In this document: one piece after another, positions 1,469-60,301 of the stretch | How positions within the stretch are numbered: the stretch's first letter is position 1 | How the letters are laid out: every line of letters starts with the position of its first letter | Assembly: GCA_942490825.1 (NCBI GenBank) | Contig: CALNYG010000005.1 | Coordinates: 198,240-262,239, forward strand | Origin: Candidatus Moraniibacteriota bacterium | GTDB lineage: Bacteria; Patescibacteriota; Minisyncoccia; Moranbacterales; GCA-2747515 | Length of the DNA: 64,000 nt | Direction: 5' to 3' | Made by a program: the position numbers and the translations under genes | The notes under the pieces: generated by a model | Seen by the model: only the letters and a program-made list of their open reading frames with translations | The model's database searches: none | What the model was told of the DNA's origin: nothing

Positions 1469-4400
1469 CTATAAATCAGTAACCCGCCCAATCTCATTAA
1501 AACTCGTAGCCCCTTCCAAAACCTTCAAAACACCATCTTGCGTCATCGTCAACATACCATTCTCAATCGCCTTCTTTTTAATTACAGAAGCCATTTCATG
1601 ATGAGAAATCATTATTCGTAACTCATCATCCATTACAAAAATCTCACTAATAACAGTACGACCTTTATAACCAATTCCATTACATTTTTCACAGCCAACA
1701 GGTTCATATAAATAACTCATTTCAGGAATCGGAAAATCAATTTTTGGACTTAAAGTTTCAATAACTTTTTTTATAGCATTTTTTTGCTCATCAGTAATTG
1801 CAACTTTCTTTTTACAATCGCAAAGTTTTCGTATTAACCTTTGAGCGATGAACGCATTAACAGAAGTAGTAATATCATCGGTGCCAATTCCCAAATTTAA
1901 TAATCTTTGAATGGCTCCAACAGCGTCATTTGTATGTAGTGAAGAAATCAACAAATGCCCAGTTAAGGCGGCATTCACTGCAGTTTTAGCAGTTTCATCA
2001 TCACGAATCTCACCAACCAACATTATATCTGGATCTTGACGAAGAAGTGATCGCAAAGCGGACGCAAAAGTATAATCATTTTTCTTATCAATTTGAGTTT
2101 GTAAAATCCCGTCTAACTGATACTCAATTGGATCTTCAATCGTTATAATTTTAACTTCAGAATTTTGAATTTCTTTTAGCACACTGTAAAGAGTAGTGGT
2201 TTTACCAGAGCCAGTTGGTCCAGTATTTAAAATTATTCCATAAGGTTTTTTAGCTTCATTAATAATTTTTTTCAAATTATAATCTCTAATTCCAAGTTTG
2301 CGAATATTTAAATCCACAGTCTCTCTATTCAACAAACGCAATACAACTGTTTCACCAAATCCGCCAGCAATAATTGAAACACGAATGTCCATTTTAAAAT
2401 CATCTTCATCGATAGGTGTTTCATAAACAACTCGGAAACGACTGTCAGAAACTCCTTGCCGAACAGTAGTTGGAATATTACTTAATTCCTTAATCTTTCC
2501 AATTAGTGAAGGGTAGTTAATCAAAGGAATTTCTGCCATATCTTGCAAAACTCCATCAATCCTCATTCTAATAAAAACTTTTTCTTCTTGAGGCTCAATG
2601 TGAATATCACTAGCTCGTAAAAATTTTCCATAAGCGAAGATTAAGGGGAGCATGTCTTGATCGGTGGCACCATTAATTTTTTCATTAACAAAATCTTTTT
2701 TGTGAGATGGCTCTTGCGATATATTCTGTTTTTCAATATCAACAAAAACACCACGAGAAAGTGTTTGAAACATTAAGTCGTCATAAAGTTTTTTAATCAA
2801 ATCACTTTCAGAAGCTACTCGGAAAATTTCTTCCATCGAGGTTACTCCGTTAATAGCTTTTAAAATACCGTCTTGAGTCATGGTAATAAAACCTTCTTCG
2901 ATAGCAGCTCTCATAATTTCGGTTTCACTATCCATGTTTAAAATTAATTGTTCAATTTTTTCGCTAATTGTCAAAACTTCGAAAATACCAATTCGTCCTT
3001 TGTAGCCAGTGTTGTTACATTTTTTGCAACCTTTTGGTTTATACAAATTATAAACTGTTTTTGGAATAGCAACTTTAGCCTTTGGGGATATCAAAGTTAA
3101 CATTTGTAGTATGGTTTCAATAGTTTCTTGAGCAGGTTCATATTTTTCTTTGCAATCACATAGACGTCGAACTAGTCTTTGTGCCATAAAGATATTTGTA
3201 GCTGGTGGAATTAGGGTTGGTTTTACGCCTAACTCTAGTAGGCGGGAAACAGTTGCTGGTGCATTATTTGTATGCAAAGTGGAGAGTACTAAGTGCCCAG
3301 TTAAAGCAGCATTAATGGCTGTATCAGCGGTTTCATCATCACGAATCTCACCAACTAAAATTACATCAGGGTCTTGACGAACGATAGCACGAAGACCTTT
3401 GGAAAAAGTATAATTTTTATTTTTAGAAACTTCAGTTTGGGAAATTCCCTCTATTTCATACTCGATTGGATCTTCAATTGTTATAATTTTCAGATCAGGG
3501 GTTTTAATATAATTTACTAAAGTATAAAGGGTGGTAGTTTTACCAGATCCAGTTGGTCCAGTGGTTAGAATCATTCCAGTATTTTTAGTAGTAGCGTTTT
3601 GGACATCTTCAGCAGCTTTTCCAGTTAATCCTAATTCTGACATGTGAACGTTAACTGATGCATTATCTAAAAGACGCATCACAATTCCTTCAAATTTTTT
3701 TCCAGGAATTGTGCTCACACGAACATCAATGTTACGATGATTATTTATACTAAAAGAAAAGTGACCATCCTGAGCTTCTTTTTTAATATTAATTTTCATT
3801 TTGCTCATGAGTTTAATACGAGAAAGAGCAAGTTTGTAAGTTTTGTGGGGGAAGTTAACAATGTCTTGTAAAACACCATCAATTCTGTAGCGTAAACGCA
3901 CATCTTTTTTTTGTGGCTCAAGATGGATATCACTGACATTTAGTTTTATTGCAGCAGAAAAAAGGATATGTAAGAGTTCAGTGGTCGGCATTGAGTCAAT
4001 TTTATTTTTTAAATCAATCAACTTTCCGATTCCTTCATTAAAATTTTCTAATTCTTCACCAGTAAGCATTAAGCGCATCACATCAATTGAGTCGATAAAA
4101 TAAGCGCCACGGTATTGTCTCAGGGACTGTTCTAAAGATGAGGGAGAGATTACATATAATCTAATGTCCCAGTTGTTTGTTTCTTTTAGTTCATTTAAAA
4201 ATATTAGAGCCTCTTTATTCAATGGATCAGTTGTTCCAACTCGAATTAAACTTCCAGCTCTATAAAAAATTACCAAATTGTGTTTTTCAGAAAGTTCTTG
4301 TTTGATTAAAGATACATCATCACTGTTGATAGGTAATAAGTTTAAATCAGCATAGCCCAGTCCTAATTTTCTAGCAATTCGAGAAGCGTATTCTTCAGAG

Positions 4401-4489
4401 CCTTTGTCTTTTAGACGTTCTATTTCTCGTCGGGTCTCTTCTTCATGCAGCGGTTGCATTTTTTGAATTGGTTGTGTTACTTTTACCAT
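1469..4489 (-). CDS. pilB: Tandem-duplicated type II/IV secretion (PilB/GspE-family) ATPase, two complete ATPase modules in one 1006-aa chain
   Basis: N-terminal T2SSE_N-like region. Walker A GPTGSGKTTT occurs twice, Walker B/Asp box (ILVGEIRD / MLVGEIRD) twice, His box (TGHLVLSTLHTN / TGHLLISSLHTN) twice, and tetracysteine clusters (CDCK..CKKC / CDCK..CEKC) twice. Confidence 0.9.
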   Translation of the reverse strand: MVKVTQPIQKMQPLHEEETRREIERLKDKGSEEYASRIARKLGLGYADLNLLPINSDDVSLIKQELSEKHNLVIFYRAGSLIRVGTTDPLNKEALIFLNELKETNNWDIRLYVISPSSLEQSLRQYRGAYFIDSIDVMRLMLTGEELENFNEGIGKLIDLKNKIDSMPTTELLHILFSAAIKLNVSDIHLEPQKKDVRLRYRIDGVLQDIVNFPHKTYKLALSRIKLMSKMKINIKKEAQDGHFSFSINNHRNIDVRVSTIPGKKFEGIVMRLLDNASVNVHMSELGLTGKAAEDVQNATTKNTGMILTTGPTGSGKTTTLYTLVNYIKTPDLKIITIEDPIEYEIEGISQTEVSKNKNYTFSKGLRAIVRQDPDVILVGEIRDDETADTAINAALTGHLVLSTLHTNNAPATVSRLLELGVKPTLIPPATNIFMAQRLVRRLCDCKEKYEPAQETIETILQMLTLISPKAKVAIPKTVYNLYKPKGCKKCNNTGYKGRIGIFEVLTISEKIEQLILNMDSETEIMRAAIEEGFITMTQDGILKAINGVTSMEEIFRVASESDLIKKLYDDLMFQTLSRGVFVDIEKQNISQEPSHKKDFVNEKINGATDQDMLPLIFAYGKFLRASDIHIEPQEEKVFIRMRIDGVLQDMAEIPLINYPSLIGKIKELSNIPTTVRQGVSDSRFRVVYETPIDEDDFKMDIRVSIIAGGFGETVVLRLLNRETVDLNIRKLGIRDYNLKKIINEAKKPYGIILNTGPTGSGKTTTLYSVLKEIQNSEVKIITIEDPIEYQLDGILQTQIDKKNDYTFASALRSLLRQDPDIMLVGEIRDDETAKTAVNAALTGHLLISSLHTNDAVGAIQRLLNLGIGTDDITTSVNAFIAQRLIRKLCDCKKKVAITDEQKNAIKKVIETLSPKIDFPIPEMSYLYEPVGCEKCNGIGYKGRTVISEIFVMDDELRIMISHHEMASVIKKKAIENGMLTMTQDGVLKVLEGATSFNEIGRVTDL

Positions 4490-5995: not shown

Positions 5996-6736
5996 ATGAA
6001 AAAGACAGTTTTGGTTGTTGGTGCAAGTAAAGGTTTGGGTTTGGCAATAGTTAATTTTTTGAGAAAAGAATATGGAGAGGAGTTTCAAATTATTGGTGTT
6101 TCTCGAACAAGAGGAGATTTGCCAAAAGAGGTGATTCATCTGCCTTGTGATATTTGTGATGAAGAACAACAAAAAAAGACAATCGATTTAATCAAAAGTG
6201 CTTATCAGCAGATTGACTATTTTATTATGTCGGTTGGCGGAATTAGAGATGACGTTGATAAGGAGTATAAGTTAAATTATATAGCTCCTAAAAATTTCAT
6301 CAATGAGCTGCTAGGCATAGTTGATCATTACTTGGTGATTTCCTCTTTTTCTGCAAAAGATCCAAATAATTACCGTTTTAAGCAAGGTGGTTATAGTTGG
6401 GCGAAAGGCTGTTTATCTAGCTGGGTTTTTTATTTAGAAAAAGCAGGTATTGTCTCTGTGACTTTAGTTGAGCCAGCATTTTTTTATACTGAGCTTATGA
6501 AAAAAGTCAAGGATCCCTTTTTCCCAGCTCGTGTTGAGGTAGTTGCAAAAAGGTCAGTAAAGGCTATGTTAGACAAAAAGAAACATAGTTACCTTTCTTA
6601 TTTTACAGTAATTTTAGGAGTATCATCTTCTATATTGCCAAGATTTATGATGCGACCAACAGATTTTTTGTTAGTTCAAATTTATCGTTTGTCGGTAAAG
6701 ATAGTCAATTGGAAACTGAAAAATTTCAAGTTTTGA
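5996..6736 (+). CDS. Short-chain dehydrogenase/reductase (SDR) family protein
   Basis: N-terminal Rossmann motif VLVVGASKGLGLAI and a YxxxK-like YSWAK. Confidence 0.7.
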   Translation: MKKTVLVVGASKGLGLAIVNFLRKEYGEEFQIIGVSRTRGDLPKEVIHLPCDICDEEQQKKTIDLIKSAYQQIDYFIMSVGGIRDDVDKEYKLNYIAPKNFINELLGIVDHYLVISSFSAKDPNNYRFKQGGYSWAKGCLSSWVFYLEKAGIVSVTLVEPAFFYTELMKKVKDPFFPARVEVVAKRSVKAMLDKKKHSYLSYFTVILGVSSSILPRFMMRPTDFLLVQIYRLSVKIVNWKLKNFKF

Positions 6737-6761
6737 CTTTTAGGTTGAATGATGTTATAAT
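6733..6761 (+). promoter_or_regulatory. Sigma70-type promoter TTGACT-17-TATAAT overlapping the SDR stop codon
   Basis: TTGACT at 6733-6738, a 17-nt spacer, TATAAT at 6756-6761. Confidence 0.55.
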
Positions 6762-6773
6762 ATTAACATCGGG

Positions 6774-6810
6774 TGAGTAAATAGCTTTTAAAGCTGTTTA
6801 CTCATTTTTT
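6774..6810 (+). terminator. Intrinsic terminator-like hairpin plus T-tract, downstream of the 6733 promoter and upstream of the L,D-transpeptidase gene
   Basis: TGAGTAAATAGCTTTTAAAGCTGTTTACTCATTTTTT. Confidence 0.6.
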
Positions 6811-6834
6811 ATTGATAAAAATCATCTATCTCGT

Positions 6835-8124
6835 TTGTCGACAAAAAAGATAGAACAAAACAAAAACAAAATGTCTCAAATCCTTACTTTTCCAACAGAC
6901 AAAAATACCATTGAACAAGCTTTAAGCAGTGAATCCAATGGCTTTAAAGAAATAAAAAAAATAGTAACTTCTTTTTTTCGTAAAAAAGTGGTTTTGTTTG
7001 GTTTAATAATGTTACCAGTTGGCTCAGCTGGGGCAGGAATTACTTTGTATGTGGATGAAAATTCCAGTTCTGAATTTTCAAAGCCAGTTGTAATGAATGA
7101 GACTGTAGTAAATTTAGAAGAAGAAATAAACTTAGAGTTTTCAAATCCAATTTCTAAAGTTGAAGAATATGAAAAAAAGATTGCTGTTTATCCAAGTGAA
7201 AATTTGGTGTTTACTTGGGATCTTGAAAAAACTCATTTAAAAATTACTCCTGTAAATATTTGGCAACCTGAAACTGAATATACATTGTCAGTGCCTAAAG
7301 TTAGTCTTGAGGATAATACACCATCTTATTTATTTACTTTTAACACATTAGCTTATCCTAAAATTATAAAAACAACCCCAGCTGAAGGTGAACAAGGATT
7401 TGTTTTTGATCAAGATAATAAAGTTTCAATTCAGTTTGATAAAAATACTGATGATTTTGATATTCAAGTAGTTTCACGACCATTTATTGAAACAGAACAA
7501 AGCTATGATCCTGAAAACAAAACGTTGATTATTACGCCGTTAGAGGAAGTGAAAAATTTTGGTTCTCATACAATTACAGTATTTGTTAAACATAAGAAAC
7601 AAGAACAGCGTGATTTTTTTCCAATAGGAGCTTTGACATTCAGTACTCTTTTGCCAATGCCTGAGGAGTGGCCTGAACAGTATAAAGAAAGATTAGAAAT
7701 TGCACGTAAATCTACTGTGGCTAAAGTTAAAAAGGGTAAATATATTGATGTAAATTTAAATGCTCAAATAACTACTTTGTTCGAAGATGGAAAATTTGTT
7801 GAAAATTTCGTGTCTTCAACTGGTGCCACTGATACTCCAACTCCCACAGGAGAATTTCAGATCTACAATAAACATCCTTATGCTTTGTCTAATATGTTTC
7901 AAGTTTATATGCCTTATTGGATGGCTTTTACTCCGGATGGTTTGTATGGATTTCATGATCTACCTGTTTGGCCAGAGGGGCATCCTGATATGCCTGAGGG
8001 AGGCAAGGAGAGTATAAATAGTATTGGTTCTCCGGTTGGTCCTGGTTGTGTTCGGCACAATGCTCATGATTCTCAGGAGATGTACGAGTGGGCGGAAGTT
8101 GGAACCAAGGTTGTTATTTATTAA
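6835..8124 (+). CDS. L,D-transpeptidase (YkuD domain) with N-terminal Ig-like region
   Basis: C-terminal YkuD signature: TPTPTGEFQIYNK .. GFHDLP .. GSPVGPGCVRHNAHD (catalytic His/Cys context). TTG at 6835; the first ATG is at 6871, so the start is uncertain. Confidence 0.8.
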   Translation: MSTKKIEQNKNKMSQILTFPTDKNTIEQALSSESNGFKEIKKIVTSFFRKKVVLFGLIMLPVGSAGAGITLYVDENSSSEFSKPVVMNETVVNLEEEINLEFSNPISKVEEYEKKIAVYPSENLVFTWDLEKTHLKITPVNIWQPETEYTLSVPKVSLEDNTPSYLFTFNTLAYPKIIKTTPAEGEQGFVFDQDNKVSIQFDKNTDDFDIQVVSRPFIETEQSYDPENKTLIITPLEEVKNFGSHTITVFVKHKKQEQRDFFPIGALTFSTLLPMPEEWPEQYKERLEIARKSTVAKVKKGKYIDVNLNAQITTLFEDGKFVENFVSSTGATDTPTPTGEFQIYNKHPYALSNMFQVYMPYWMAFTPDGLYGFHDLPVWPEGHPDMPEGGKESINSIGSPVGPGCVRHNAHDSQEMYEWAEVGTKVVIY

Positions 8125-9993: not shown

Positions 9994-10266
9994 ATGTTAA
10001 CCAAAAGGCAAAAGGTAAATGCAACAAAAGAAGTAATTAGACATAAGACGGATACTGGGTCTCCAGAATATCAAATCGCTCTTTTTACGACACGGATTAA
10101 GAAATTAACGGCACACTTGAAGAAAAACATTCATGATTTTCATTCTCGACGTGGTTTGTTGAAGATGGTAGCTAAAAGGAAAAAACTTTTGGATTACTTG
10201 TCAAAAAATGAGCCTAAAACTTACAAGACAATTATCAAGAAGTTTGAGTTAAGAGAGCGCAAATAA
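9994..10266 (+). CDS. rpsO: 30S ribosomal protein S15
   Basis: 90 aa; TGSPEYQIALFTTRIKKLTAHLKKNIHDFHSRRGLLKMVAKRKKLLDYL is typical S15. Confidence 0.95.
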   Translation: MLTKRQKVNATKEVIRHKTDTGSPEYQIALFTTRIKKLTAHLKKNIHDFHSRRGLLKMVAKRKKLLDYLSKNEPKTYKTIIKKFELRERK

Positions 10267-10350
10267 TGCGCTTTTTTAATTGGTTTTGAAATTTGATATT
10301 ATTTTAATGAGGAGTTAAAAATTATTAAGTTGAGACAATTAGAAACGTTT

Positions 10351-10383
10351 CGGAATCAGTGGTCTTCGACACACTAATTCCGG
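10351..10383 (+). repeat. Palindromic intergenic element, CGGAAT(C/T)AGTGGTCTTCGACACACTAATTCCGG family
   Basis: 13-bp stem hairpin. A second copy lies at 12349-12382 and a third inside murE (41044-41136). All share the 5' flank (A/G)GAAA(C/T)GTT. Confidence 0.85.
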
Positions 10384-10413
10384 CAAATTAATTAAATTTA
10401 AAATAAAAAGTTT

Positions 10414-10911
10414 ATGAAACATAAGGATCAGCGAGTGGCGGTTTTGGTGGATATTCAAAATTTGTATTATAGTGCTCGTGTTTTGTATAAGAAAAAGGTG
10501 AATTTTAAGAACTTGCTTATGGAGTCTGTGGGTGATCGGAAATTGATTCGTTCGATTGGTTATGGGATTGCGACTGAAGAGGCGTCGGAGGATAAGTTTT
10601 TTGATGCTTTGGAAAAGGCGGGCTATGAGGTGAAGACTAAGGATTTGCAGATTTTTCCTGGTGGGCAGAAAAAGGGTGATTGGGATGTTGGGGTGGCGGT
10701 GGATGCGATTAAATTATCAAAGCATGTGGATGTGATTATTTTAGCTTCTGGTGATGGTGATTATATTCCTTTGGTGGAGTATTTGCAGGCGACGACTGGT
10801 TGTCGGGTTGAGGGGGTTAGCTTTGGGGAATCGACTAGCATGCGCTTGATTGAATCTTTGGATGATTTTTTGAATTTATCGGAGGATAAGAAAAAGTTTT
10901 TGATTCGGTAG
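10414..10911 (+). CDS. NYN/LabA-like (PIN-fold) domain protein
   Basis: RVAVLVDIQNLYYSA .. ILASGDGDYIPLVEYLQ pattern of PF01936-type proteins. Confidence 0.75.
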   Translation: MKHKDQRVAVLVDIQNLYYSARVLYKKKVNFKNLLMESVGDRKLIRSIGYGIATEEASEDKFFDALEKAGYEVKTKDLQIFPGGQKKGDWDVGVAVDAIKLSKHVDVIILASGDGDYIPLVEYLQATTGCRVEGVSFGESTSMRLIESLDDFLNLSEDKKKFLIR

Positions 10912-10935
10912 GAATTTTGTGAAATTTGGGCAAAT

Positions 10936-10967
10936 AAAAAACACCTCTTTTGTGGAGGTGTTTTTTT
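10936..10967. terminator. Bidirectional intrinsic terminator
   Basis: AAAAAACACCTCTTTTGTGGAGGTGTTTTTTT between convergent ORFs. Confidence 0.8.
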
Positions 10968-10970
10968 AAA

Positions 10971-11132
10971 TTAAGCGTTATCCATTTTTACAGCATGTTT
11001 GATATTCTCTTTTATTTCTCTTAACTCTTCCTTGATGGAAGTTAAGACTTCCAACTTTCTAGCAATTTCTTCTAGTGCTTCAGCAGTTCTTCGTCTCGTA
11101 TTTTCTTCATTATTTAAATCAAATGCTCCCAT
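10971..11132 (-). CDS. Small hypothetical coiled-coil protein (53 aa)
   Basis: Below the track size cutoff. MGAFDLNNEENTRRRTAEALEEIARKLEVLTSIKEELREIKENIKHAVKMDNA; ends at the bidirectional terminator. Confidence 0.35.
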   Translation of the reverse strand: MGAFDLNNEENTRRRTAEALEEIARKLEVLTSIKEELREIKENIKHAVKMDNA

Positions 11133-11142
11133 AATTATTTTG

Positions 11143-11505
11143 TTAGTTTTTTAAAAAAGGAATTTTTTCAAGATCATATTTACGTTGTCTTTCGAGCGGG
11201 GAAATTTTTTCTTTAAAAAATAATTCTTCTCGCCTACTTAGACCATCTATTACTCCTTGTGAAACACATTGTGATTCTATTTTTGTTATTTCGACATCTC
11301 TTTCTTCATATAGAGAAATAATTTTTTTCTCATTTTTATGAATTCTAATAAAAAGGTATGAAAAGTATATGAATCCAAAAAATAACATTATTTTCCATAA
11401 AGCATTCCAAGTATCAGTAAGGTTAGAAGATAATTGGAAAATAAAAACTCCTAAGAAAGCAATTTCTACAATCATTAAAATGTTTCCTATTTTGGTACAT
11501 TTCAT
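11143..11505 (-). CDS. Hypothetical membrane protein
   Basis: Two predicted TM helices. Its start codon lies 17 nt after the tRNA-Ser(GCU) 3' end. Confidence 0.5.
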   Translation of the reverse strand: MKCTKIGNILMIVEIAFLGVFIFQLSSNLTDTWNALWKIMLFFGFIYFSYLFIRIHKNEKKIISLYEERDVEITKIESQCVSQGVIDGLSRREELFFKEKISPLERQRKYDLEKIPFLKN

Positions 11506-40349: not shown

Positions 40350-40404
40350 TTTTAAAAAGCCTGTGCGGCGAGCACTTTTATTTTTTAAATTAAAATTAAT
40401 CATC

Positions 40405-41817
40405 ATGGAAATTATTTTGGCTTATGTTAAAAAATTGATTCCGAAGAAGTTGTTTAAAAAATTACAACCGATTTATCATTATGTTTTTAACTTTTTGGCA
40501 GCGGTGGTTTATGGTTTTCCGTCTAATAAATTGATTGTGGTTGGGGTTACGGGGACGACGGGGAAGACGACGACGACTTTTATGATTGCGGAAATGTTGA
40601 AAAATGCTGGGGTGAAGGTGGGGTATACTTCGACGGCGATGTTTGGTGATGGGGAGACGGAGCGATTGAATGATAAGAAAATGACGATGTTGGGGCGGAT
40701 GTTTACGCAGAATATGATTTCGCGGATGGTGCGGAATGGTTGCGAGGTGGCGATTATTGAGACGACTTCGGAGGGGGCGGTGCAGTTTCGGCATCGGTTT
40801 ATTAATTATGACATGATGGTTTTCACGGGGATTTATCCTGAGCATATTGAATCGCACGGAAGTTTTGAGAATTATAAAAAAGCGAAAATTGAAATTTTTA
40901 AGCACTTGAAGATTTGCGGAAAGAAGGACTTGAATTTGTTAAATGGTAGTGAAGAGAAAATTAAAAAGACTTCTATCATTGATGGTGATGATGAATTTGC
41001 TGGGGAATTTTTGGAACCTTGGGCGGAGGAGAAAATTGTTTTTAGAAATGTTGCGGAAGCAGTGGTCTGTCGACACACTACTTCCGGCGAAAATTCCCGG
41101 GTTGAAAATTTCCAACCCCTACAGGATAATGACGTGTCTTTTGTGAATTATAAATTTAGGGAAATTAATAATGTTGGGGTTAAATTTGATTTTGATGGTG
41201 AGGAGATTCAGATGAAAATTTTGGGTGATTTTAATTCTAAAAATGCGACGATTGCTGGTGCGGTTGGTTTGGCTTTAGGATTGAATAAAAGGCAAATTAG
41301 GTCTGGATTGGAAAAAGTTGTGGGGATTCCTGGGCGTTTGGAACGGATTGATGAGGGTCAGGATTTTACGGTGATTGTGGATTATGCGTTTGAACCGGTG
41401 GCGGTTGGTAAGCTTTATGATATGGTTGGGAATTTGGATCATGAAAAAATTATTCATGTTTTGGGTAGTGCGGGTGGGGGTCGTGATATGGCTCGGCGGG
41501 AGATATTGGGTAAGTTGGCTGGTGAAAAAGCGGATTTTGTGATTGTTACGAATGAGGATCCGTATGATGAGGATCCGATGGAAATTATTAAAATGGTAGC
41601 GGATGGTGCGAGAAACGTTGGTAAGGTTGAAGATGATAATTTATTTTTAATTGAGGATCGTGGAGAGGCGATTGAAAAGGCGATTGGTTTGGCGAGGGAA
41701 GGTGATGTGGTTTTGATTACGGGGAAGGGTTCGGAACAGGCGATTGTGGTTGGGAATGGGAGGAAGGTTATGTGGGATGATCGGGATGTTGTTAGGGAAG
41801 TTTTGAGAAAGATGTAA
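40405..41817 (+). CDS. murE: Mur ligase, MurE-type (UDP-MurNAc-L-Ala-D-Glu : diamino acid ligase)
   Basis: P-loop VGVTGTTGKTTT, FNSKNATIA, DYAFEP (DYAHTP equivalent), NEDPYDEDP (DNPRxEDP equivalent). The track start 40363 runs through the repeat box and was trimmed to ATG 40405. Confidence 0.85.
   Translation: MEIILAYVKKLIPKKLFKKLQPIYHYVFNFLAAVVYGFPSNKLIVVGVTGTTGKTTTTFMIAEMLKNAGVKVGYTSTAMFGDGETERLNDKKMTMLGRMFTQNMISRMVRNGCEVAIIETTSEGAVQFRHRFINYDMMVFTGIYPEHIESHGSFENYKKAKIEIFKHLKICGKKDLNLLNGSEEKIKKTSIIDGDDEFAGEFLEPWAEEKIVFRNVAEAVVCRHTTSGENSRVENFQPLQDNDVSFVNYKFREINNVGVKFDFDGEEIQMKILGDFNSKNATIAGAVGLALGLNKRQIRSGLEKVVGIPGRLERIDEGQDFTVIVDYAFEPVAVGKLYDMVGNLDHEKIIHVLGSAGGGRDMARREILGKLAGEKADFVIVTNEDPYDEDPMEIIKMVADGARNVGKVEDDNLFLIEDRGEAIEKAIGLAREGDVVLITGKGSEQAIVVGNGRKVMWDDRDVVREVLRKM
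41044..41136 (+). repeat. Intergenic-type palindromic repeat inserted in frame inside murE
   Basis: AGAAATGTTGCGGAAGCAGTGGTCTGTCGACACACTACTTCCGGCGAAAA.. aligns with the intergenic copies AGAAACGTTTCGGAATCAGTGGTCTTCGACACACTAATTCCGGC (10341-10384) and 12340-12384. It encodes RNVAEAVVCRHTTSGENSRVENFQPLQDNDV. Confidence 0.8.
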
Positions 41818-56306: not shown

Positions 56307-57404
56307 ATGATTGCTAGTTATGGATTACTGATTTTTATGCTCAAGAAAATATTATTTAGTTTAGTTGCGGGGTTTTTGATTTTTATTATTCAGGCACAGA
56401 GTGTTGATGCATCAGGGCTTGTTCCTTGTGGAGGTACCGGTGAGGACCCATGTACCTTTTGTCATCTGATTGTTGGAATAAAGGGTTTGATCGACATTAT
56501 AACAGGGACTTTATTGGTTGTGGCTGCTTTGTTTGTTATTACTGTGGCTGGGGTTATGTGGATAACTGGCGATAGTTTTGGTTTGATAAATCAGGCTAAA
56601 AGTGCAATTAAAAATGCTTTGGCGGGGATTGTGGTTGTGTTGACGGCTTGGTTGATGGTTATTGGGATTTTGAATTTATTGTCAGCTAAGGATTTTGTAA
56701 GTACAGAAACAGGTGATGTTATTTTGAGTAAAACAGGTGTATTTGGTTTTGAGTGTTCGACAAAGTCTTTTGTTGGGGGTGAGGTTGAGGGTTCTAGTGG
56801 TTCAAGCAGTAACCCAAGCAGTAACCCAAGCAGTAACCCAAGCAGTAACCCAAGCAGTAACCCAAGCAGTAACCCAAGTTCTTCTACAACGAGTGGATAT
56901 AAAACAGCGGAGGAAGAAAAAAAAGAAAAGGAGGTTAGGGATAGAGTGGAGGAACAAGGGATGGAAATTAATAAACCAGCTTGTAAATATTATGGACAAA
57001 CAGATTGTACAGATATGGGAGGATTGACAGAAAATTCTATTTCTGGATTAGAGAGATTTAATAGTGATTATCAAAAATGGGCAAAAGAAAATAATAAATC
57101 TACTAAAGTTACTGTGAATGGAGGATCAGAATCTAATAAAATACATCAAGGTAGTAGTAATCCCAATTCAGAATCTCATGCTAATGGACGAAAAGTTGAT
57201 ATAGATGATGGTAATTCTGATTTAAATGATTTTCTTTATGGAAATAAAAAAAAAGGAATTGATCCTTATCTTACTGATACTGGGAAAATTTGGACAAAAA
57301 GTAAAACAAAACTTTATAAGGATCCATATGGAAAAATTTGGGCTAAAGAGAGTAGTCATTCAGATGTGTGTCTTGATTGTCCAACAACAAATGCAAGATA
57401 TTAA
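56307..57404 (+). CDS. Pilin-like (TrbC/VirB2-type, CPR T4SS-pilin-like) N-terminal domain fused to a LAS/peptidase-M15-like C-terminal domain
   Basis: Signal peptide (probable start MLKKILF at 56337), then LVPCGG..DPCTFCHL and two TM helices as in the downstream pilin paralogs, then an (SSNP)x6 linker. The C-terminus has VTVNGGSES..SESHANGRKVDIDD (SxHxxGxxxD) and SSHSDV (HxD), resembling hedgehog/DD-peptidase-fold wall hydrolases. Confidence 0.55.
   Translation: MIASYGLLIFMLKKILFSLVAGFLIFIIQAQSVDASGLVPCGGTGEDPCTFCHLIVGIKGLIDIITGTLLVVAALFVITVAGVMWITGDSFGLINQAKSAIKNALAGIVVVLTAWLMVIGILNLLSAKDFVSTETGDVILSKTGVFGFECSTKSFVGGEVEGSSGSSSNPSSNPSSNPSSNPSSNPSSNPSSSTTSGYKTAEEEKKEKEVRDRVEEQGMEINKPACKYYGQTDCTDMGGLTENSISGLERFNSDYQKWAKENNKSTKVTVNGGSESNKIHQGSSNPNSESHANGRKVDIDDGNSDLNDFLYGNKKKGIDPYLTDTGKIWTKSKTKLYKDPYGKIWAKESSHSDVCLDCPTTNARY
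56805..56876 (+). repeat. Six perfect 12-nt tandem repeats AGCAGTAACCCA (SSNP linker)
   Basis: Direct reading. Confidence 0.95.
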
Positions 57405-57413
57405 AATAATTTT

Positions 57414-57683
57414 ATGTTAATAGAAATAGTACAAGCAGGGATAATTGATGATGCGCCGACCATTTATGAGTTGTTAGTTATAACGATACAAAAGGTATTA
57501 ACTTTTGTAAGTAGTGTAGCAATTTTGGGAGTTGTTGGTTCAGGGATAATTTATATGGTGTCCTCAGGAAATAGAGAACAACAAGAATATGCAAAAACTG
57601 TTTTGAAAGGAAGTGTGATTGGTTTGATTATTGCGTTAACTTCTTTAGTTTTAGTAGGTGCAATTACAGGGATTTTTGAATAG
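57414..57683 (+). CDS. Pilin-like two-TM protein (TrbC/VirB2-type)
   Basis: 89 aa; VAILGVVGSGIIYMVSSGNREQQEYAKTVLKGSVIGLIIALTSLVLVGAITGIF. Confidence 0.65.
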   Translation: MLIEIVQAGIIDDAPTIYELLVITIQKVLTFVSSVAILGVVGSGIIYMVSSGNREQQEYAKTVLKGSVIGLIIALTSLVLVGAITGIFE

Positions 57684-57953
57684 ATGGGGAGATCATTAGA
57701 TTTTTAGAGGAGTAGAATTTTTTAAATTAAATAAAGATTTAATTTTTGTGTAGAAAGAATTGATTGCTTATGGTAGAGTATTAGAAATACGAGGTAGGTG
57801 ATCTTTAATATGTTGATTCCGATGTATAATTTAGTTACTAGTTACAGATTATTGATTACTAGTTACTAACTTACTATTTACCAAAGTTTTAAAATATGAG
57901 ATAATAAAAAGGTAAAAAAGAAAAATAAAAATTATGAAAGGAGGTGTTTATAA

Positions 57954-58355
57954 ATGACGATAAAAATTCAAAAATTCGTGATGATGTTTGTTTTAGGTAT
58001 GATGGTTGTTTCACCAATGGTTGTTGATGCTGCGGATACAAAAAAAGTTAGCACAAAAAAGGCAGAAGATTCAAGTGAAGGTTTAGTGAAGCCTGATACA
58101 CCTAAAGGGATTAAGGACAATACAGATTTGAAAGCGATGTTGAAGATTGTAATTGAAGCAATTCTATATATTATAGGAACTCTTTCATTATTGATGATTG
58201 TAATTGGTGGTGTAATTTATGTTACTGCTGGTGATTCAGGAAGAGCTGATATGGCAAAGGCTTATATTACCTATGCTATTATTGGTTTAGTGGTTGCTCT
58301 AGTTGGATTATCTATAATTAACTTAGTAATTGATAAATTAGGAGCTACTACTTAG
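57954..58355 (+). CDS. Pilin-like two-TM protein with signal peptide
   Basis: GTLSLLMIVIGGVIYVTAGDSGRADMAKAYITYAIIGLVVALVGLSIINLV; strong RBS AAAGGAGG. Confidence 0.65.
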   Translation: MTIKIQKFVMMFVLGMMVVSPMVVDAADTKKVSTKKAEDSSEGLVKPDTPKGIKDNTDLKAMLKIVIEAILYIIGTLSLLMIVIGGVIYVTAGDSGRADMAKAYITYAIIGLVVALVGLSIINLVIDKLGATT

Positions 58356-58546
58356 GAGCTTAAGTTATTTTTAGGTTTTTTATAAAAAAGCACTTTTTAT
58401 AAGGTGCTTTTTTATTTTTTATTTTTTAGTGCTATAATAGTTATATAAATTTATTAACTTATATTTGAATTTTAAAATTGTGTATCATAGCCCGTGCGGC
58501 AGGCACCTTCATTTTTTAATCTAATAATTACTAAACTAAAACAAAT

Positions 58547-59026
58547 ATGAAATTTTTTTTAAAAACTTTTTTAGCAGTATTTATGCTATTTTTTATTTTT
58601 TCAAATAATAATGTTTTAGCTCAACCTGCTGAAAATACTGGAACATCTTCAATCAAGACTATTACTCCAGGTGAAAATAGAAAAACTAAACCTCCAACTA
58701 AAAAAGTTGCTCCAAATTCAGCTCAAGCTTCATCAACTACCACTACTAAAGGTGGCGTGAAAGTTCCAACAAGCGACGACTTGGGAGGTCTTTCTGACAA
58801 AGATATAAAAGGAACACTTGAAACAGTAATAGATACAATATTGGCTATCGTTGGAACTCTTTCATTGTTGATGATTGTTGTGGGTGCGGTGATATTTATT
58901 GTTGCGGGAGATAATAGAGATTTAGCAGAGACAGCACAGAGTATGATTACTTATGCTATTGTAGGATTAGTAGTTTCATTGCTTAGTTATGCTGTGGTGA
59001 TATGGGTATTTGATGCTTTGAGTTAA
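58547..59026 (+). CDS. Pilin-like two-TM protein with signal peptide and T/S/P-rich variable region
   Basis: GTLSLLMIVVGAVIFIVAGDNRDLAETAQSMITYAIVGLVVSLLSYAVV. Confidence 0.65.
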   Translation: MKFFLKTFLAVFMLFFIFSNNNVLAQPAENTGTSSIKTITPGENRKTKPPTKKVAPNSAQASSTTTTKGGVKVPTSDDLGGLSDKDIKGTLETVIDTILAIVGTLSLLMIVVGAVIFIVAGDNRDLAETAQSMITYAIVGLVVSLLSYAVVIWVFDALS

Positions 59027-59037
59027 AAGTAAAATTT

Positions 59038-59316
59038 ATGAATAATTTTGGAACAAAAAATTTAGGATTAGAAAAAGAGGTGATCGCTCAAGAAATTTTT
59101 TTGAAATTTGCGGCAGGGGCTTTGAGTTTTGTTTTTATTGGAGCGTTTTTGATGGGAGTGGTTGGAGCGGTGATCTGGGTAACTTCAGGAGGAAATGAGG
59201 ATAGAAATGATAGTTCTTCTATGATGATAAAGTCATCATTGGTTGGGATGATCGGATCGTTTATTGGTTACGTGGCATTGAGAATTTATGCAAATGTGAT
59301 TGGGGTAGATTTTTAG
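59038..59316 (+). CDS. Pilin-like two-TM protein (short form)
   Basis: FIGAFLMGVVGAVIWVTSGGNEDRNDSSSMMIKSSLVGMIGSFIGYVAL. Confidence 0.6.
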   Translation: MNNFGTKNLGLEKEVIAQEIFLKFAAGALSFVFIGAFLMGVVGAVIWVTSGGNEDRNDSSSMMIKSSLVGMIGSFIGYVALRIYANVIGVDF

Positions 59317-59512
59317 AAGAATAGATTTGTAGACAGGTAGATAAGTAGACTTTTAGATGTTGTTAGTTCAATCTTGTAGATTGAATCTAGTGTTTGTGCC
59401 AATTTAAAGTTTTTATAAAACTTGAAAAATTGAGTGATTTTTAAAGTTTGATATAAACGAATGGTTCAATCAGAATGATTGAACCAACAGTAATTACTAA
59501 ATTAAAACAAAT

Positions 59513-60301
59513 ATGAAATTTTTTTTTAAAACTTTTTTAGCAGTATTCATGCTATTTTTTATTTTTTCAAATAATAATGTTTTAGCTGAACCAGCTCAAC
59601 CAGCTGGAGCAGGTTCTAATCCAAGTTCAGTTAGTGTTCCAAGGACAGGTCCAGCGACTGGAAATGCTGGAGGAGCTTCAACTAAATTTCCAGATCCAGC
59701 TTCAGCTTCAACTAAAAAAGTTGCTCCAAAACCATTAGATAAACCCACAACAAACACTTCTACGAAACCAAATTTAACTGCTAATTCTTCAGGAAATAAA
59801 TCAATTGAGTTTAAAAATCCAATAAGTAAAAATACCGTTGAGGATCTTTTGATAAGTGCAATGGCGGTTATTCGAAATGTAGTGGCGGCTTTGGCGATTT
59901 TGATGATAGTGATTGGGGCGGTGATGTGGATTTTGTCAGGAACAACAGGACAGACAGAAAAAGCAAAAACTGTTATTCAGTCGGCAGTAATTGGATTGGC
60001 GATTGCGTTGGCGGCACCGACATTTATTGGTGAAATTTATGGTGTTTTAGGTAAAGATACGCCAGAAGTTGAAGGTGCTGACTTTAGTTTGAGTGTTTAT
60101 GATATTGCTGTAAATATAACTAATTTAATTTTAGGATTTATTGGGGTATTATCGATTTTGATGATTATTGTAGGCGGAGTAATGTGGATGACAAATCAAA
60201 GTGATGTAGCTAAGAAGATGGTTAAGGCAGCAGTTATTGGTTTGGTTATTGCGTTGACTTCTTTGGTTATTGTGAAAGCAATTGTAGGGATTTTTGGGTA
60301 A
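59513..60301 (+). CDS. Pilin-like protein with two tandem pilin domains
   Basis: The signal peptide is nearly identical to that of 58547. Domain 1: LAILMIVIGAVMWILSGTTGQTEKAKTVIQSAVIGLAIALA. Domain 2: LSILMIIVGGVMWMTNQSDVAKKMVKAAVIGLVIALTSLV. Confidence 0.65.
   Translation: MKFFFKTFLAVFMLFFIFSNNNVLAEPAQPAGAGSNPSSVSVPRTGPATGNAGGASTKFPDPASASTKKVAPKPLDKPTTNTSTKPNLTANSSGNKSIEFKNPISKNTVEDLLISAMAVIRNVVAALAILMIVIGAVMWILSGTTGQTEKAKTVIQSAVIGLAIALAAPTFIGEIYGVLGKDTPEVEGADFSLSVYDIAVNITNLILGFIGVLSILMIIVGGVMWMTNQSDVAKKMVKAAVIGLVIALTSLVIVKAIVGIFG

Follow-up and report, generated by a model that had tools for sequence, protein, structure and literature searches.

A 64,000-nucleotide (nt) stretch of the genome of a Candidatus Moraniibacteriota bacterium (assembly GCA_942490825.1, contig CALNYG010000005.1, positions 198,240 to 262,239 of the forward strand; hereafter, the window) encodes a protein in which a likely VirB2-like pilin module is fused to a C-terminal domain (C-domain) that probably belongs to the LAS superfamily (M15/Hedgehog/DD-peptidase; MEROPS clan MD). 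The gene occupies a single unbroken open reading frame (ORF) of 365 amino acids at 56307–57404 (+), stop codon included. On balance, its product appears to be a membrane-tethered extracellular peptidoglycan peptidase that works with the pilin array to which the gene belongs. An original prediction, made from the sequence of the window alone, had described this ORF as a pilin-like domain joined through an (SSNP)6 linker to a cell wall hydrolase of the LAS, M15 or VanY type; the observation proved largely correct, and its interpretation at the level of domains receives moderate support. What is new here is a family of LAS-like domains and a pilin-hydrolase architecture that recurs in genomes of the candidate phyla radiation (CPR).

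The two halves, which had been proposed to form one gene, lie in one frame without interruption. Between them, a perfect tandem repeat at 56803–56878 (+; 12-nt unit, 6.3 copies, 100% matches, score 152 in Tandem Repeats Finder) encodes (SSNP)6, as predicted, within a Gly/Ser-rich linker spanning residues ~161–199. The six units are identical in nucleotides, which suggests a recent expansion, and among the relatives compared SSNP repeats occur in the window protein only. An exhaustive phmmer search against 1.84 billion cluster representatives (50% identity) yielded 2162 relatives, nearly all of them found via the N-terminal module; motifs and architectures were counted in the best 150 of these. 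As detected with a hidden Markov model (HMM) of the C-domain family, 34 of the 150 carry the C-domain, in each case C-terminal to the pilin module, and their linkers are wholly different (Pro-rich repeats, Gly-rich runs, Cys-rich inserts). The closest relative (P0001; 407 amino acids, 57% identity to the window protein) is encoded at 10001–11224 of locus L002 and 6360–7583 of locus L003, and in several independent assemblies its gene order (pyruvate kinase, solute-binding protein, fusion, five small pilin-like genes, NusA) matches that of the window. The search of related genomes, which had been suggested as a check, thus returned both recurrent two-domain proteins and a syntenic ortholog, and the fusion is genuine and recurrent. 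The perfect repeat is placed exactly at the junction, where an assembly or sequencing error might have joined two separate genes; however, copy-number changes of a 12-nt unit, a multiple of three, cannot shift the frame, and the recurrence of the fusion with unrelated linkers, both among the 34 relatives and for the ortholog in several independent assemblies, makes such an origin exceedingly improbable. In P0001–P0003, one or two small Cys-rich inserts (..ELC.G......W.W.C......C..) take the position of the SSNP repeat. A second, imperfect tandem repeat (25 nt x 2, 83% matches) lies at 56707–56754, inside the ORF and after the second transmembrane helix. The exact window protein has no identical entry in the assembly index, a locus search with this protein alone returned one distant pilin-only locus, and one distant relative carries the annotation Candidatus Paceibacterota.

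The N-terminal module has the layout of a pilin, namely, a signal peptide followed by two hydrophobic helices, as judged from the hydropathy profile and from alignment with five neighbouring pilins. Alignments with the phmmer relatives begin only at residues 10–14 of the query, and Met11 (56337) is therefore probably the true start. The predicted Sec signal peptide MLKKILFSLVAGFLIFIIQAQSVDA (56337–56411, +), recognized by sequence reading and hydropathy, would be cleaved after VDA, a site assigned by eye according to the -3/-1 rule. Hydrophobic windows cover residues 52–94 and 99–128, and a two-helix transmembrane hairpin (residues 64–118; 56496–56660, +) matches PF18895 (T4SS_pilin), the sole Pfam match of the window protein. 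The match (22.0 bits, E 1.8e-4) falls short of the gathering cut-off of the family (26.6 bits); PF18895 is also the only Pfam family matched in ten of ten close relatives, six of which score above the cut-off, so that the module is likely, by transitivity, a VirB2-like pilin domain. The signal peptide is followed by a Cys motif, SGLVPCGGTGEDPCTFCHL (C41, C49, C52; 56412–56468, +), predicted to be extracytoplasmic. Its two parts recur in the best relatives as an LVPCG-like motif (140/150) and CxxC[HD]L (138/150), which places the module in a Cys-motif subtype of VirB2-like pilins. A conserved segment after the second transmembrane helix (56685–56786, +) contains F-G-F-E-C (C150), and the corresponding motif [WFY]x[FL]xC is found 60–140 amino acids past CxxC in 64 of the 150; C150 is likely to be disulfide-paired with the N-terminal Cys motif. 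Together with C226, C234, C355, and C358, these residues give an even number of cysteines in each segment predicted to be extracytoplasmic, a distribution consistent with an exported, disulfide-bonded protein. The LVPCGG..DPCTFCHL string, the cleavable-looking signal peptide, and the two long hydrophobic helices described in the original prediction were all recovered. It had also ascribed the same layout to the downstream pilins: the two helices are indeed shared, and some of these pilins have the signal peptide, but none of the five downstream pilin-like ORFs contains a cysteine, and thus the Cys motif is not common to the array. The Cys-motif module is also found with other cargo in three relatives (P0018, P0033, and P0094): two have a C-terminal SLT_3 lysozyme-like stretch (PF18896, ~21 bits; cut-off 27), and in the third the pilin module is preceded by a Peptidase_S8 subtilase domain. 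A general role as a carrier of hydrolases is thus possible for the Cys-motif module.

The C-domain comprises residues 200–365 (166 amino acids; 56904–57401, +), as delimited by an AlphaFold2 model, the family HMM, and hhalign; the HMM covers residues 201–359 of the window protein with E 7e-37. No match to the C-domain was found in Pfam, NCBIfam, PHROGs, PDB sequences (phmmer, hmmsearch), or a word-indexed protein search, and neither Pfam nor NCBIfam contains a model of this family. Using tblastn, nothing was found in phages, and 42 plasmid records were retrieved, 40 of them from Streptomyces (plasmid loci of the family are L009–L015). Streptomyces members carry one or two copies of PG_binding_1 followed by the C-domain, or a GH25 lysozyme domain, two PG_binding_1 copies, and then the C-domain, and the Deinococcus gene directly follows a gene for a MurNAc-L-Ala amidase; these partners point to peptidoglycan as the substrate. 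Moreover, an alignment-based search revealed standalone secreted versions of 154–177 amino acids, one of which is annotated as originating from the fungus Rhizoctonia solani. The occurrence of the family on Streptomyces plasmids and in Deinococcus, Nonomuraea, and the protein annotated from R. solani is patchy, which suggests horizontal spread and fits a secreted lysin.

Conservation was assessed in 39 sequences from CPR bacteria, Streptomyces, Nonomuraea, Deinococcus, and one fungus. In particular, H280, H291, G294, D298, and E348 (full-protein numbering) are invariant in all 39, and conservation of K296, H351, and D353 is 95% or higher. H351 and D353 are separated by Trp in 35 of the sequences; the window protein has Ser there. 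H280 (57144–57146, +) lies in the loop after the GGSE strand and aligns with the H134/H135 region of Sonic hedgehog (Shh). The segment H291-A-N-G294-R-K-V-D298 (57177–57200, +), which hhalign also aligns, provides the H-x6-D zinc-ligand motif of the LAS superfamily in 39 of 39 sequences and is proposed to supply the first two ligands. The second LAS motif is present in a variant form only, E348-x-x-H351-x-D353; in the window protein, E348-S-S-H351-S-D353 (57348–57365, +) is proposed, from conservation and an alternative hhalign alignment, to contribute a general base and the third ligand (H351 or D353). The strings VTVNGGSES, SESHANGRKVDIDD, and SSHSDV, on which the hydrolase assignment had originally been based, do occur in the protein. 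The SxHxxGxxxD signature read from them is not literally there, as a Glu stands two positions before H291 (S-E-S-H), but its HxxGxxxD part and the HxD motif, as H351-S-D353, are. Judged from the sequences, the motifs of the C-domain exceed chance. Two other assignments were rejected: a beta-beta-alpha-Me/HNH nuclease reading of the C-terminal hairpin, as many members end right after HWDVTYY and the helix is not conserved, and a microbial RNase (T1/barnase) reading of the domain, owing to an apparent motif mismatch.

Profile comparisons relate the family to two branches of the LAS superfamily. The Hedgehog template was built from the N-domain of human Shh (ShhN; verified at 399 bits against PDB chains) and two bacterial Hedgehog-like plasmid proteins, and the M15A template from E. 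coli MepK and five phage M15A peptidases. In hhalign, the family profile matched the Hedgehog set with E 0.0085, the M15A set with E 0.0067, and the merged set with E 0.0043. The register was the same each time: a pre-strand helix, the strand ITGGSE placed on VTEGWDE or SGYR, the His loop, and a second block in which SH.NGYKVDI falls on SLHYEGRAVDI (Shh) or SYHTKGQAMDF (M15A), so that H291..D298 are aligned with H141..D148 of Shh and H133..D140 of MepK. An alternative alignment places HWDV onto HIHCSV of Shh. Column-permutation nulls gave z = 3.9, 5.1, and 7.2, with none of the ~200 permutations per template, 198 in the case of the merged set, matching the real score, and none of 400 shuffles of ShhN attained its real score of 19.5. 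For calibration, Hedgehog and M15A, an accepted homologous pair, gave no better than E 9e-4 when compared through these shallow templates. With the merged LAS profile, the fusion ORF was the top-scoring of 98 open frames of 100 or more amino acids in the window, though by a narrow margin (21.9 versus 19.3). In a low-stringency, non-significant alignment with the Ply500 endolysin, H291/D298/H351 fall on H80/D87/H133 and E348 on D130. Hedgehog-like proteins are encoded on plasmids of Bacillus tropicus (L007) and Pararhizobium gei (L008), both typed MPF_T, whose C-terminal domains are ~60% identical to the human Sonic hedgehog N-domain (PF01085, 170–176 bits); the P. gei gene adjoins a gene with an N-acetylmuramidase domain.

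Structural comparison points towards the same superfamily by way of a homolog. The AlphaFold2 model of the window C-domain, built from a 30-sequence alignment (pLDDT 92.3, pTM 0.87), comprises, in order, a helix, a disulfide loop, a helix, a strand, a long His-bearing loop, a strand, a helix, a hairpin, and two strands. The model of the shortest family member (120 amino acids, pLDDT 91.7), which does not have the extra hairpin, shows an alpha-beta-beta-alpha-beta-beta core. The top PDB match of this minimal member in Foldseek is the C-domain of VldE (9flk; E 0.029, probability 0.93, template modelling (TM) scores 0.38/0.41, 111 columns), and the top 15 matches include three more VldE entries and the M15C endolysin domain of Ply500 (2vo9, TM 0.43). 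Among the listed alignments of more than 100 columns, the VldE and Ply500 entries have the top TM scores and the lowest root-mean-square deviation. VldE (Spr1875) of Streptococcus pneumoniae is an M15-like L,D-endopeptidase with the LAS fold, its ligands being H301, D308, and H375; it is a modular protein whose peptidase acts on peptidoglycan outside the cell (PMC11667670). The likeness to its C-terminal MT3 domain (9flk, 9flh, 9fln, 9flm) extends over ~110 columns at TM ~0.4; a zinc-zipper loop and a LysM domain set VldE apart from the C-domain, sequence identity is 12–16%, and the window's own model did not retrieve it.

In its motifs and in the predicted order of its secondary-structure elements, the C-domain resembles the M15A peptidases (Streptomyces albus DD-carboxypeptidase, E. 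coli MepK, PF08291) and Hedgehog (PF01085). It shares with them an H-x6-D motif located immediately ahead of and within the second strand, E..H-x-[HD] in a C-terminal hairpin, and the order helix, strand, loop, strand, helix, strand, strand; with Hedgehog it also shares an acidic, His-containing loop after the first strand. The N-terminal PG_binding_1 of the Streptomyces relatives has a counterpart as well, since the S. albus DD-carboxypeptidase likewise carries an N-terminal PG_binding_1. In contrast to M15A and Hedgehog, the family has S-H in place of S-x-H, Glu in place of the Arg of SGYR, and H-W-D rather than H-x-H as its last motif, and it possesses an extra N-terminal helix with a disulfide loop and, in most members, including the window protein, an extra beta-hairpin. 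On sequence grounds, the C-domain is outside every existing M15 or Hedgehog family of Pfam, and its family seems to represent a new branch within the Hedgehog/DD-peptidase superfamily.

Several results weigh against the LAS assignment. The hhalign probabilities are low (5–8%), and neither MepK alone nor an alignment of its close homologs gave a signal, the latter template being too shallow because the MepK search returned only relatives more than 76% identical (a phmmer search of PDB with MepK gave spurious leucine-rich-repeat matches only). The window protein has no match at E <=1 to the Pfam models M15_3 (PF08291), VanY, M15_4, VanX, or HH_signal (PF01085); PF08291 is touched by one of 30 family members (E 0.02), and the standalone members gave nothing at E <=10 against the M15 and Hedgehog models. 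Searched against PDB sequences, the family HMM found nothing. Where M15 peptidases have the Arg of SGYR, the domain has Glu. Finally, a Foldseek search of PDB and BFVD with the window C-domain model gave no match with E <0.1 and no LAS protein among the matches listed, which were noise such as histidine-kinase CA domains (TM <0.3). The structural check that had been suggested thus gave no LAS structure for the window domain itself but pointed to VldE for its minimal homolog.

Alternatively, the domain may not be of the LAS type, in which case a different small hydrolase or binding fold, likewise metal-dependent, would have converged on these motifs. The silence of the window model in Foldseek and the weakness of all statistics (E 0.004–0.03) would suit such a fold; however, three independent lines (hhalign with two different LAS templates, Foldseek with a second member, and the order of secondary-structure elements) agree on both the superfamily and the residue register, and the peptidoglycan-related domain partners agree with LAS, so that convergence seems very improbable. 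Each of these lines is weak when taken singly, whereas jointly they offer moderate and convergent support, by sequence and by model. Of the original LAS, M15 or VanY assignment, membership in the superfamily is accordingly the part that stands as most likely, on the basis of hhalign, the minimal-member Foldseek result, and the partners; a match to any defined M15, VanY, or Hedgehog family of Pfam is the part that does not. An LAS-like domain might still be non-catalytic and act, as a Hedgehog-like metal-dependent binding or adhesion module on a membrane anchor, on ligands of the wall or the host surface. Its closest sequence likeness is to the Hedgehog-type loop (VTEGWDEDGHH..SLHYEGRAVDI versus ITGGSE.G.H..YSH.NGYKVDI), and the transition-state Arg of M15 is absent. 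A purely binding role is nevertheless improbable: the expected catalytic residues (H, D, H/D, E, and an extra His) are invariant or nearly so across very distant taxa, lytic enzymes and peptidoglycan-binding domains accompany the homologs, and in Drosophila Hedgehog, where the putative peptidase function is lost, these residues are lost too (PMC6027127).

The gene stands first in an array of six VirB2-like pilin genes; five further pilin ORFs, identified by Pfam and alignment, follow at 57414–60301 (+). Four of the five match PF18895 with 25–46 bits: those at 57414–57683, 57954–58355, 58547–59026, and 59513–60301, the last of which also matches TrbC/VirB2 (PF04956) and contains two pilin domains in tandem. 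The ORF at 59038–59316 has a weak DUF6112 match and was called pilin-like by alignment with the others (all on the plus strand). The ORFs starting at 58547 and 59513 open with a near-identical 25-residue signal peptide (MKFF[LF]KTFLAVFMLFFIFSNNNVLA), which suggests a recent duplication or recombination. The locus resembles the tandem, divergent PF18895/PF04956 pilin genes of reported Patescibacteria VirB2 arrays (Wang et al. 2023; Quinonero-Coronel et al. 2025, PMC12102498), which, according to the latter, comprise 2–11 genes; six is also the gene number of the essential array of Southlakia epibionticum (PMC12102498). Unlike the window array, the arrays described there consist of small pilins only (PMC12102498), and the array analysed here is not next to virB4 within the window. 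Pilin-enzyme fusions are not mentioned in the searched passages of the 2025 survey of Patescibacteria type IV secretion systems (T4SSs; PMC12102498) or of a 2025 T4SS review (PMC12857230).

Mature pilins of the VirB2/TraA type arise by signal-peptide cleavage and form a two-helix hairpin with both ends outside the membrane. In the scheme we infer for topology, disulfides, metal binding, substrate, and site of action, the fusion protein would be secreted and inserted into the membrane through its VirB2-like module, with the Cys motif stapled by disulfides and the C-terminus facing out. The LAS-like domain would then be held outside the cell on a tether of ~80 residues, of which the flexible (SSNP)6 linker part accounts for ~40. 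It would bind zinc through H291, D298, and H351 or D353, with E348 as the general base that activates water and H280 assisting (roles proposed by analogy with M15, VanX, and Shh; PMC6027127, PMC11667670), and would cut stem peptides or cross-links of peptidoglycan. The pilin module would put the enzyme where T4SS pilins gather and assemble, so that the wall, either that of the cell itself or that of an attached host, could be opened locally. The favoured placement is in the membrane amid the pilin pool, opening the cell's own wall where a pilus or T4SS emerges, in which case the protein would be a functional analog of VirB1. VirB1-type hydrolases of monoderm T4SSs (PrgK of pCF10, TraG of pIP501, CwlT) are likewise membrane-anchored and extracellular, open peptidoglycan for the T4SS, and commonly have anchored multi-domain builds. 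In contrast to the VirB2-like pilin anchor and LAS-like enzyme found here, they rely on SLT/lysozyme and CHAP/NlpC-P60 (or M23) domains that are tethered by a simple transmembrane segment; no SLT/lysozyme-like or CHAP domain was detected in the window protein with Pfam or NCBIfam, and the relation to VirB1 is proposed to be functional, not homologous.

The link to a T4SS has its own counterweights. No virB4, virB6, or virD4 gene is present in the 64-kb window, and neither virB4 nor virD4 lies within 10 kb of the ortholog, so that the link depends on the name of the pilin family. Moreover, we know of no demonstration that PF18895 proteins of Patescibacteria form pili. The original prediction had placed wall or prey-cell lysis at the filament itself; on that view, the fusion might be a minor pilin, built into or tipping a T4SS pilus, whose peptidase digests the wall of a host or prey cell at contact. 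The C-terminus of a pilin hairpin should face outward, and the fusion gene heads the array; furthermore, the fungal and Streptomyces standalone homologs, next to or fused with lysozymes, resemble secreted anti-bacterial lysins, and the C-domain may therefore be able to act on foreign walls. The union of the same pilin module with an SLT_3-like stretch and a subtilase in other CPR proteins would also suit display on a filament. However, known pilus structures suggest that a C-terminal load of ~240 residues on a 70-residue pilin core would be hard to pack in a VirB2-type helical filament, no pilus is known for these proteins, and the observations fit plain membrane anchoring just as well as incorporation into a filament; incorporation seems unlikely overall. 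A VirB1-like role for a protein tethered in the membrane is no worse a fit than filament display. It is a rather doubtful extension that the Cys-motif module is a general carrier whose LAS-like, SLT_3, and subtilase fusions are minor pilins arming the T4SS pilus to breach the host wall. If it were true, an enzyme-armed conjugative-type filament would serve epibiotic feeding, and the armed carrier would explain the presence of VirB2 pilins without VirB1 in most of these genomes.

The low G+C content, the PF18895 array, and the distant relative annotated as Candidatus Paceibacterota are consistent with a CPR/Patescibacteria member. The rest of the window contains housekeeping genes and a double T2SSE ATPase. 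The latter, a protein of 1005 amino acids encoded at 1469–4489 (-), has two T2SSE (PilB-like) ATPase domains and an MshEN domain and, from its domain content, is a tandem-fused ATPase of a type IV pilus or type II secretion system. Two further window genes, at 6835–8124 and 40363–41817, encode an L,D-transpeptidase (YkuD, combined with Big_5) and a Mur ligase; the organism therefore makes peptidoglycan, which possibly contains 3-3 cross-links that an LAS enzyme of the L,D-endopeptidase type could cleave.

In the one genetically tractable Patescibacterium, epibiotic life requires T4SS genes as well as a VirB2-like pilin array, and most Patescibacteria genomes with VirB2 lack VirB1, according to the 2025 survey and review (PMC12102498, PMC12857230, the latter point from PMC12102498). 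The protein described here bears on how the pili of Patescibacteria pass through the cell wall. The C-domain defines a widespread family that extends from CPR bacteria to Streptomyces, Deinococcus, and a fungus. Its recurrent fusion to a pilin module makes this wall-peptidase-like domain a concrete candidate, open to testing, for the absent activity that would open the wall or attack that of the host.

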